IMG/VR virus record: IMGVR_UViG_2526164662_000025
Origin: a virus
Lineage: Duplodnaviria; Heunggongvirae; Uroviricota; Caudoviricetes
Reading direction: 5' to 3' (one strand)
Length of the DNA stretch: 13,122 nt
Shown: positions 5,129-6,785 of the stretch, in pieces
How positions within the stretch are numbered: the first letter of the stretch is position 1
Layout of the letters: each line of letters starts with the position of its first letter
The notes under the pieces: model-generated
Databases searched by the model: none
What the model was told of the DNA's origin: nothing
Seen by the model: the letters and a program-made list of their open reading frames with translations, nothing else
Made by a program: the position numbers and the translations under genes

Positions 5129-5209
5129 TCACATCTCGTATGTAATGGAATAAGTCAAATCAGCAGAACTCCATAACGCCATATCGTCATCACGACGATA
5201 CTCATAGCC
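5129..5209 (-). pseudogene. U: 3' fragment of tail terminator gene U (last 25 codons plus stop), separated from the rest of U by the IS insertion
   Basis: Minus-strand translation from 5209 gives [26 protein letters not shown] then a stop at 5129..5131. This matches the lambda gpU C-terminus as I recall it ([26 protein letters not shown]) and is in phase with the N-terminal fragment at 6468..6785 once the IS and one copy of the GCC duplication are removed. Confidence 0.85.
5207..5209. repeat. Left copy of the 3-bp target site duplication (GCC) flanking the IS
   Basis: GCC lies immediately outside the TG...CA termini of the element at both ends (5207..5209 and 6468..6470). A 3-bp duplication is typical of IS3-family elements. 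Confidence 0.75.
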
Positions 5210-5235
5210 TGTAGTGGCACACTAAATTTGGCCAC
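5210..5235. repeat. IS left terminal inverted repeat (IRL)
   Basis: TGTAGTGGCACACTAAATTTGGCCAC compared with the reverse complement of the right end, TGTAGTGGTCAAGTAATATTGGCCAC: the terminal 8 bp and the internal TTGGCCAC block are identical. Confidence 0.7.
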
Positions 5236-5281
5236 CTGATGAAAGGTGATATTCTCACCACAACACAAAACAGGTGACTTA

Positions 5282-5593
5282 ATGAACAAGAAAACCAAAC
5301 GAACCTTCACCCCTGAGTTCAGGCTGGAATGTGCACAGCTGATTGTTGATAAGGGCTACTCATATCGACAGGCCAGTGAAGCGATGAATGTCGGTTCAAC
5401 CACGCTTGAGAGCTGGGTACGCCAGCTCAGGCGAGAGCGCCAGGGTATTACGCCCTCTGCCACACCCATTACTCCAGACCAGCAACGTATCCGCGAGCTG
5501 GAAAAGCAAGTTCGCCGTCTGGAGGAACAAAATACGATATTAAAAAAGGCTACCGCGCTCTTAATGTCCGACTCGCTGAACGGTTCACGATAG
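5282..5593 (+). CDS. IS3-family transposase OrfA (helix-turn-helix and leucine-zipper DNA-binding subunit), 103 aa
   Basis: ATG at 5282 preceded by a purine-rich candidate RBS (aacAGGTGActtaATG), TAG stop at 5591..5593. Sequence resembles IS911/IS3-group OrfA. The ORF-track start at 5246 is probably too far upstream. Confidence 0.9.
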
Positions 5594-6459
5594 CCGCCAG
5601 ACTAAGTGACAGCCACACGGTTGTCAGCCTGTGTTCTGCTCTGGAAATACACCGCAGCAGTTACCGGTACTGGCGAAAACGACGCGATACGGTTAATCCG
5701 GCACGAGTCAGGTTGTGCAGCGAAATACGCCGGGCGTGGAACCAAAGTCGGGGCTCTGCGGGCGCGCGCACTCTGGCTGAAATGCTGACTCAAAACGGCG
5801 TCCCGATGAGCCGTTACCGTGCCGGACGTCTGATGAAATATCTGAACCTGAGCAGTTGTCAGCCCGGAAAACATCAGTATAAAAATGCCCGTCAGGAGCA
5901 TACCAGCCTGCCGAATCTGCTTGAGCGTCAGTTCGCAGTACCGGAGCCAGACCGGGTATGGTGTGGAGATATTACGTATCTCTGGGCAGGAAATCGCTGG
6001 TGCTATCTGGCGGTTGTTATGGATCTTTTTGCCCGCAGGGTTATCGGCTGGAGTCTGTCAGCGCATGCCGATACCGCACTGATAAGCAGTGCCCTGCGGA
6101 TGGCCTATGAGACGCGTGGCCAACCCCGGGATGTCGTGTTCCATAGCGACCAGGGAAGCCAGTATACAGGCCTTAAATATCAACAACTTCTCTGGCGTTG
6201 CAGAATAAATCAAAGCGTCAGTCGGCGGGGAAACTGCTGGGATAACAGCCCCATGGAACGCTTCTTCCGCAGTCTGAAAACAGAATGGGTGCCAACGAAT
6301 GGTTACGCAGGCAAGGACGAGGCCCGGCAGCAAATTAATGATTACATATTGAACTACTACAACAGCGTCAGACCTCACCATTATAACGGTGGGCTGACGC
6401 CGGAAGAGTCAGAGAACAGATACCATTTTTACTGTAAAACCGTGGCCAATATTACTTGA
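5539..6459 (+). CDS. IS3-family transposase OrfB / catalytic DDE domain, expressed mainly as the OrfAB fusion by -1 frameshifting. The frame is open 5410..6459 and contains no ATG upstream of the slip site.
   Basis: DDE signature residues in context: [41 protein letters not shown] stop at 6457..6459 lies inside the right inverted repeat. Confidence 0.85.
5542..5548 (+). promoter_or_regulatory. -1 programmed ribosomal frameshift site A AAA AAG that generates the OrfAB transposase
   Basis: In the orfA frame the sequence reads ATA TTA AAA AAG GCT. The -1 frame is open from here to 6459. An in-frame ATT lies just upstream at 5539..5541 and GGAGGA at 5521..5526, an arrangement I recall for IS911 (AUU-initiated OrfB and an upstream SD-like frameshift stimulator). 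Confidence 0.8.
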
Positions 6460-6467
6460 CCACTACA
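6442..6467. repeat. IS right terminal inverted repeat (IRR)
   Basis: GTGGCCAATATTACTTGACCACTACA, ending in CA at 6467; the reverse complement matches IRL. Confidence 0.7.
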
Positions 6468-6470
6468 GCC
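6468..6470. repeat. Right copy of the 3-bp target site duplication (GCC)
   Basis: Identical to 5207..5209. On the minus strand it encodes Gly106 of U, the codon at which the IS is inserted. Confidence 0.75.
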
Positions 6471-6785
6471 CTGCGTAACCATCGTGGTAATCAGGCCTGA
6501 CAGTGCCGGGATCGCACTCATCGCCGGATAAATCCGGCTTTCCATCCACGAATCCAGCTCTGAATCCGGCACCTGAGCAGGCAGGAAAACTTCAATATGC
6601 AGCTCCGCCTGCCAGGTATCGCTGTCCAGCGCTTCGCCCGTGTATTCAGCGCCGGTGAGATAAACAGCAATTGCCGGAAAATCCGCCTCATCAAAAACAG
6701 CGGGGCGACCATCAAACAGCGTCGCCCCGTGTTCATGCTGCTCGAGTGCATCCAGCACTGCAGCACGGATATCAGTATGTTTCAT
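6468..6785 (-). pseudogene. U: 5' fragment of tail terminator gene U (codons 1-106), disrupted by the IS insertion. As it stands it would give a 118-aa chimera ending in 12 IS-encoded residues.
   Basis: MKHTDIRAAVLDALEQHEHGATLFDGRPAVFDEADFPAIAVYLTGAEYTGEALDSDTWQAELHIEVFLPAQVPDSELDSWMESRIYPAMSAIPALSGLITTMVTQG matches lambda gpU. After Gly106 the reading frame enters the IS right end ([12 protein letters not shown], stop at 6429). Confidence 0.9.

Follow-up and report, generated by a model that had tools for sequence, protein, structure and literature searches.

How has the tail terminator gene U of a lambda-like prophage come to lie in two pieces, and what would the break cost the prophage? 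The question is raised by the viral record IMGVR_UViG_2526164662_000025, a stretch of 13,122 nucleotides analysed here in full (the window), which according to its open reading frames (ORFs) and to the annotation of close relatives corresponds to the late region of a lambda-like prophage, that of morphogenesis, encoded on the minus strand. In this region U occupies the same place as in the tail gene order of lambda, between Z and V and upstream of G-T and H, and it is in this very place that a 1258-bp insertion sequence (IS) is found. U is a pseudogene due to the insertion of this IS3-family element at codon 106, as confirmed by a filled-site/empty-site pair. For the reading as a whole, in which an ISEc31-like IS is inserted in codon 106 of U, the allele is inherited, the function of U is lost and polarity is secondary, we estimate a probability of about 0.93, and nothing in the evidence contradicts its structural part.

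Gene U is split by an insertion sequence at codon 106

The element lies between Z and V, displays TG...CA ends, starts with TGTAGTGG and finishes with CCACTACA. Its termini form imperfect inverted repeats, and the corresponding arms (5209-5235 and 6442-6468; 27 nucleotides (nt), 78% complementary) rank first among the inverted repeats of the region. The element is flanked on both sides by the trinucleotide GCC. The literal direct repeat is one base longer, AGCC (5206-5209 and 6467-6470), as the IS terminates in an A and the left GCC is coincidentally preceded by an identical base. In its other copies, too, the IS ends in ...CCACTACA and is bordered by 3-bp duplications, and therefore a 3-bp duplication of GCC is the right reading; at eight other sites, occupied by the same IS or by its variants, the duplicated triplets are CGC, ACA, TCT, CAC, TGC, CAG, ATT and ATA.

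Upon removal of the IS together with one GCC, the two parts of U are rejoined into an ORF of 131 amino acids (aa), which matches the Pfam profile PF06141 (Phage_tail_U) with an E value of 3.7e-61 over profile positions 1-130 of 130 and aligns from end to end with lambda gpU (PDB 1Z1Z; E 3.1e-73, residues 1-131 to 1-131). Residues 107-131, those separated from the remainder of the gene by the insertion, are nearly identical between the rejoined protein and lambda gpU. Likewise, the DNA obtained by deleting 5210..6470, compared together with flanks of 60 nt and 40 nt, is found exactly, with a single GCC, in two related prophages that harbor an intact U, those of UTME-12 (L003; L numbers designate the loci compared) and 2013C-4187 (L004), in both of which the product of U is WP_000683071.1. 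The first-pass annotation, made from the sequence of the window alone, had proposed a 1258-bp element with TG...CA ends and imperfect inverted repeats at 5210..6467, a GCC target duplication at 5207-5209 and 6468-6470, a split of U at codon 106, a chimeric product with 12 IS-encoded C-terminal residues, a reconstituted U with the 131-aa length of lambda gpU, and a comparison with related prophages having an intact U. Re-inspection of the ends, the translations of 6429..6785 (118 aa in place of 131 aa) and 5129..5209, the end-to-end Pfam and PDB matches and the two exact empty sites bear out this description. The features of the locus are collected in Table 1.

Table 1. Features of the interrupted gene U, of the inserted element and of the neighboring genes (positions in the window).
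Feature	Position	Strand	Basis or remark
Complete IS3-family IS (ISEc31-like, IS911 subgroup), 1258 bp	5210..6467	+	sequence; identity to E. coli copies
Gene U N-terminal part, codons 1-106	6468..6785	-	in relatives annotated as 'gpU ... missing C-terminus' pseudogene by the NCBI Prokaryotic Genome Annotation Pipeline (PGAP)
Chimeric ORF, 118 aa: U residues 1-106 (ending in Gly) plus 12 IS-encoded residues	6429..6785	-	translation
Gene U C-terminal remnant: Gly106 copy, codons 107-131, stop	5129..5209	-	PGAP in relatives: 'gpU ... missing N-terminus'
Left copy of the 3-bp target-site duplication GCC	5207..5209		sequence; single GCC at the empty site
Right copy of the 3-bp target-site duplication GCC	6468..6470		Gly106 codon of U, minus strand
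Left terminal inverted repeat (IRL)	5210..5235	+	same end at the other insertion sites examined
Right terminal inverted repeat (IRR)	6442..6467	+	also codes the last OrfB residues and the stop TGA (6457-6459)
orfA, 103 aa, helix-turn-helix (HTH) transposase N-terminal protein	5282..5593	+	Pfam HTH_Tnp_1, E 8.8e-13
Programmed -1 frameshift heptamer A AAA AAG, joins orfA to orfB	5542..5548	+	sequence
orfAB transposase, 392 aa after the predicted -1 frameshift, rve/DDE domain	5282..6459	+	profile matches
Rfam RF01387 (isrC) match	5278..5400	+	150.4 bits (gathering score 39), model positions 1-123 of 123
Gene V, major tail tube protein, 250 aa, downstream neighbor, intact	4369..5121	-	own GAGGA Shine-Dalgarno sequence and ATG
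Gene Z homologue, 191 aa, upstream neighbor, intact in the window	6782..7357	-	ORF; annotation of relatives

The gene order of the window is A (cut), W, B, C, D, E, FI, FII, Z, U, V, G, T, H, M and L (cut). With the annotation of L003 as a reference, all genes other than U are full length, and no lesion apart from that of U is visible. The conserved heptamer G GGA AAG, which in lambda serves for the programmed -1 frameshift between G and T, is located close to the end of G, at 3948..3942 on the minus strand.

Identity of the element

IS3-family elements are about 1.2-1.55 kb in length, end in imperfect TG...CA repeats, harbor orfA and orfB connected by a -1 frameshift and encode an rve domain, and in the IS3/IS911 subgroup the target duplication is of 3-4 bp. 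Each of these features is found in the element inserted in U, with respect to its length and ends, to overlapping ORFs with an A6G-type heptamer, to DDE and HTH domains and to a 3-bp duplication. Past the heptamer (5542-5548) no stop interrupts the -1 frame up to 6459, and the predicted OrfAB contains the Pfam domains rve (E 5.3e-27), rve_3 and HTH_21 and matches the NCBIfam equivalog model NF033516 (transpos_IS3) with an E value of 1e-107 and 360.6 bits, for a cut-off of 160. The identical gene in L001 is annotated by PGAP as 'IS3 family transposase, programmed frameshift' (WP_085968792.1); no paper was found by searching for this accession. Copies displaying 100% identity to the full-length element occur in hundreds of E. 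coli genomes, both in chromosomes and in plasmids, and 938 records carry it at an identity of at least 99%; per genome the median is 2 places and the maximum 17. Because elements 100% identical to it are present in multiple copies in many E. coli genomes, the IS is intact and presumably active. The search of the phage collection with the IS returned partial matches only, and the ISEc31 relative surfaced via plasmid and chromosome matches.

By the ISfinder convention, two elements count as isoforms when their DNA is more than 90% identical and/or their transposases are more than 95% identical. In comparison with PGAP-labelled ISEc31 elements of the same length (1258 bp), which here stand in for the ISfinder reference, the identity is 92.7-92.8% at the nucleotide level and 97.8% (OrfA) and 94.4% (OrfB) at the protein level, the latter values falling around the 95% line. 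The IS911-labelled copy in BL21(DE3) displays about 65% nucleotide identity over 74% of the length and 52% (OrfA) and 57% (OrfB) protein identity, which places the element outside the limits of an IS911 isoform. To judge from these comparisons, the element belongs to the IS911 subgroup of the IS3 family and its closest named relative is ISEc31 as labelled by PGAP. Accordingly, the earlier description of the element as IS911-like is adequate at the level of the subgroup, in ends and organisation, and does not hold for IS911 itself.

With ISEc31 the element shares the length of 1258 bp, the ends TGTAGTGGCACA...GACCACTACA, the succession of orfA, A6G frameshift and orfB and the 3-bp duplication; it differs from it by about 7% in DNA sequence, and the window variant (WP_085968792.1) is named by PGAP only generically, as an IS3 family transposase. 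E. coli harbors at least three variants with a mutual identity of about 92%. IS911 of Shigella and E. coli, the best-studied element of the IS3 family, has nearly the same IRL (TGAAGTGGCACACTGAATTTGGCCACCTGA in IS911 and TGTAGTGGCACACTAAATTTGGCCACCTGA here), and also in common with it are the A AAA AAG -1 frameshift that gives OrfAB, the DDE transposase and the 3-bp duplications; in contrast, the element in U is a separate IS and not an isoform of IS911.

Two other matches to the element concern its ends. The isrC family is an Hfq-binding RNA. In Salmonella, isrC is a small RNA (sRNA) of a genomic island, located between envF and msgA (PMC2330248). The isrC match in the window corresponds to the 5' end of the orfA mRNA region, including the ATG at 5282, and since it coincides with the start of orfA it is attributed to IS homology and is not taken to indicate an independent sRNA gene. 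In fact, the RF01387 family appears to be homologous to, or derived from, the left part of ISEc31-like elements, and an automatic sRNA annotation of this segment would mislead. At the opposite end, the 28-nt IRR terminus (CCGTGGCCAATATTACTTGACCACTACA, window 6440..6467), which also codes the OrfB C-terminus ...VANIT*, is exactly kept in IS3-family elements of Shewanella, Pseudidiomarina, Paraglaciecola and Alteromonadaceae (loci L128-L170, for example L165, L146 and L154), the bodies of which are 64-67% identical. A broad host range, as might be read from exact matches to the IRR in marine bacteria, was considered and rejected: the elements are only 64-67% identical, and what is common to them is the terminal 28 nt.

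Predicted functional consequence of the insertion

Lysates of lambda mutants defective in U (amber) contain aberrant, over-long and inactive tails that are not joined to heads. As seen in the lambda virion, gpU folds with all of its 131 residues into one domain, in which two helices flank a five-stranded antiparallel sheet, and six copies of the protein assemble as a hexameric ring, which caps the tube of gpV and receives gpFII (PMC10721106). Because the 25 residues lost from the product in the window belong to this single-domain fold in lambda gpU, the replacement of residues 107-131 by 12 unrelated ones should destroy the fold, and the prophage alone should yield no infectious tailed particles. 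We hypothesize that a complete and apparently active IS3-family element transposed into codon 106 of U in a lambda-like E. coli prophage with duplication of the target GCC, that the last 25 residues of gpU were exchanged for 12 unrelated ones, and that the truncated protein would fail to make the hexameric ring that stops the growth of the tail tube and joins the tail to the head. The lesion would then have been inherited, later modified by an IS30 insertion and by a stop in the transposase gene, and moved to another prophage by recombination. Two points limit this proposal: the name ISEc31 derives from PGAP labels, and the functional loss of U(1-106)+12 is extrapolated from lambda gpU.

The alternative that best withstands the evidence, and which we nevertheless regard as unlikely, is that the main effect of the insertion would be a strong transcriptional polarity silencing V-G-T-H-M-L, and not the loss of U as such. 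The IS is located upstream of these genes in the late transcript and is antisense to the late operon, its 1.26 kb of untranslated antisense sequence could permit the action of Rho, and a terminator-like hairpin is present on the late-gene strand at 5901..5885. However, this is a single weak hairpin, fewer than the 1.8 expected from shuffled sequences, and the scan of the IS displayed no promoter-like site and neither an outward promoter nor a strong terminator above chance. Furthermore, V possesses its own GAGGA and ATG, and the ribosome-binding site of V lies within the C-terminal remnant of U (5129..5209). Late transcription in lambdoid phages is antiterminated by Q, and the Q-modified RNA polymerase passes both intrinsic and Rho-dependent terminators. 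Since V keeps its own translation start, the main defect is likely to be the loss of U, and strong polarity on V to L is unlikely. The polar effects on the tail genes V-G-T-H-M-L, earlier considered plausible, are possible, but the IS offers little to produce them: no promoter-like site, a hairpin at chance level and a downstream gene with an intact initiation region.

Inheritance of the allele and comparison with known systems

In order to establish the distribution of the U::IS allele a 2.3-kb probe spanning the filled site was searched against 5426 complete E. coli genomes. The same filled site is present in 8 of them, which originate from Japan, China, Australia and other places, with identical position, orientation and duplication in all 8. 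U::IS is a rare allele, since the same morphogenesis module is found at a coverage of at least 80% in about 1470 genomes. The plain allele occurs in OkiPb01717 (bovine, Japan), CAU16175 (swine, China), PEC240 and AUSMDU00014361 (human, Australia), and an allele with a nested IS30 in DEC9B, 7_33_46A, F2_407_2_2 and Z1323PEC0008. In DEC9B the IS30 measures 1221 bp (L002 3855..5075) and is inserted between nt 343 and 344 of the IS (about 5552/5553 in the window) with a 2-bp duplication; in the three further carriers an IS30 is annotated inside the IS. Many plasmids and chromosomes repeatedly display matches to the halves of the IS, nt 1-344 and 343-1258, which suggests either that this IS contains a hot spot for IS30 or that a single composite has spread.

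Five of the eight carriers were examined by annotation. In three of these, OkiPb01717, DEC9B and CAU16175 (loci L171, L172 and L173), the prophage occupies one and the same chromosomal site, adjoining an alpha-2-macroglobulin gene and a truncated DUF1175 gene, and past the tail fibres it carries the type III effector genes nleA and nleG together with iss (Iss/Bor) and lom; the nleA/nleG cargo was observed in these relatives, at a position beyond the left end of the window. In OkiPb01717 and CAU16175 the gene for the Q antiterminator has decayed to a pseudogene; an internal stop is also found in Z of OkiPb01717 and in the IS transposase of CAU16175. In AUSMDU00014361, an identical G-V-U'::IS::'U block (L174 20430..22017) is located in another prophage remnant, whose cargo is nleH/cif/espJ and whose H and J genes differ, and a second prophage of this genome (L175 14128..14523), which also carries nleG, harbors an intact U coding for the identical protein WP_000683071.1. 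The complete E. coli genome closest to the window is OkiPb01717 (99.6%), and no exact match to the window was found among the complete E. coli genomes. The two sequences differ by 46 mismatches and one gap, and 25 of these 47 differences cluster at window 11000..12000, in the portal gene B, as is typical of mosaic recombination among lambdoid prophages.

The simplest reading of this distribution would be one insertion event, followed by vertical inheritance and by at least one transfer between prophages through homologous recombination. The IS and its flanks display zero substitutions relative to the relatives, and the flanks are clean over 1.8 kb in comparison with the empty site of L004. Since the allele is shared by 8 genomes, with a nested IS30, a transposase stop and the context of another prophage among them, it is inherited and not private to the source strain, although in sequence terms it is young. 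The first-pass annotation had taken the intact duplication as a sign of a fairly recent event; a duplication of 3 bp holds no dating information, and an allele common to 8 genomes does not sustain that view.

A fresh transposition specific to the source strain, or repeated hits at a hot spot in U, in place of one inherited allele, is improbable. Such an origin might be read from an IS that seems active and is 100% identical to hundreds of copies, from flanks devoid of substitutions relative to the empty site, and from a late operon struck several times by this IS group: the identical IS is found in FII of MS1665 (L006 3039..4296, duplication CGC), a 91.9% variant in FI of CE10 (L007 3368..4625, duplication ACA) and ISEc31 in V of DEC5B (L005 1643..2900). 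However, these insertions are at different positions, whereas within U position, orientation and duplication coincide in 8/8 genomes, the chromosomal site and the cargo are shared by three of the five carriers examined, and later events (nested IS30, transposase stop, transfer to another prophage) are layered on the allele. A 13-nt perfect inverted match between the interior of the IS (6299..6311, in orfB) and the U flank beside the duplication (6470..6482) first hinted at targeting. In a set of 134 unique insertion flanks gathered from metagenome and genome scans, with controls taken 150 nt away and with shuffled sequences, the longest matches between flank and IS are no longer than, and are distributed like, those of the controls and shuffles; the U site is a single outlier among the 134, and the shuffles reach at least 13 nt in 3/2680 cases. 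Targeting by complementarity was therefore rejected and the match at U ascribed to chance. The four independent late-operon insertions of this IS group (U, FII, FI and V) are all antisense to the late genes; a general orientation bias was likewise rejected, given that the 44 other assignable sites divide into 27 antisense and 17 co-directional, a difference that is not significant.

Very improbable is a chimera U(1-106)+12 that still works, or a dispensable U, in a fully functional prophage, considering that lambda U amber mutants give aberrant and inactive tails. In favor of a working chimera, the loops of gpU that contact gpFII (residues 25-37) and gpV (residues 45-58) are located in the retained part of the protein (PMC10721106). 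Against it, the 25 residues lost are comprised within the single-domain fold (PMC10721106) and within the Pfam profile, which runs through position 130, they are almost unchanged with respect to lambda gpU, and the further decay of the prophage in relatives (Q and Z pseudogenes) fits a loss of selection. An assembly artefact in which a repeated IS was misplaced into a really continuous U, a possibility raised by the first-pass annotation itself and for which one may invoke the multicopy IS (median 2 and up to 17 places per genome) and the lambdoid modules repeated within genomes, both classic causes of misassembly, is countered by the clean 3-bp duplication at the junctions, by the exact empty site and by identical junctions in 8 independently assembled complete genomes, including the versions with a nested IS30, and has a negligible probability.

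If U is lost by inheritance of one insertion, as we propose, two routes of rescue are plausible. An intact U could be supplied in trans by co-resident lambdoid prophages, and an intact U is actually present alongside U::IS in one carrier, AUSMDU00014361; several near-identical prophages in one genome may recombine and possibly complement one another (PMC2669165; PMC5592225). Alternatively, the element might be removed with the aid of the IS-excision enhancer (IEE), which is present in the major lineages of Shiga toxin-producing E. coli and promotes IS3-family element excision (PMC9397093). One may speculate that U::IS constitutes a portable and reversible lock that grounds the nleA/nleG prophage and keeps it resident, and that may be copied between prophages and bypassed or undone. 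The copying could occur by recombination into other lambdoid prophages, as in AUSMDU00014361, and the repair by IEE-promoted excision, which could restore the 131-aa U and the site CATAGCCCTGCG if one GCC leaves together with the IS; we consider this idea unlikely. As a further speculation, the chimera U(1-106)+12, with its loops for contact to gpV and gpFII retained, might poison the tail assembly of co-resident lambdoid phages.

The locus represents an ordinary disruption of a prophage structural gene by an IS, which the RefSeq annotation of related genomes already shows, and it opens no new question. Its main value concerns correct annotation, with U as a pseudogene split by an ISEc31-like IS, the isrC match as IS-derived and the prophage as predicted to be tail-defective on its own. 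Moreover, U::IS and its IS30-nested derivative have a modest value as a lineage marker for a small set of strains, including the O26 strain DEC9B.

Compared with lambda gpU (PDB 1Z1Z, 3FZ2 and 3FZB; in the virion 8IYD, 8K37 and others), the rejoined product has the same 131 aa, aligned from end to end, in the same gene order Z-U-V-G-T-H; the difference is that the gene is split here and that its present product is devoid of residues 107-131. A parallel is also found in the pool of defective lambdoid prophages of enterohaemorrhagic E. coli, for instance with IS629/IS1203 in O157 Sakai, where an IS3-family element likewise interrupts a morphogenesis gene of an effector-carrying lambda-like prophage. 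In the Sakai-type cases the IS and the gene affected are other than those found here. Taken beside them, U::IS illustrates once more that the pool of effector-carrying prophages in attaching-and-effacing E. coli is shaped by IS3-family elements and by recombination between prophages.

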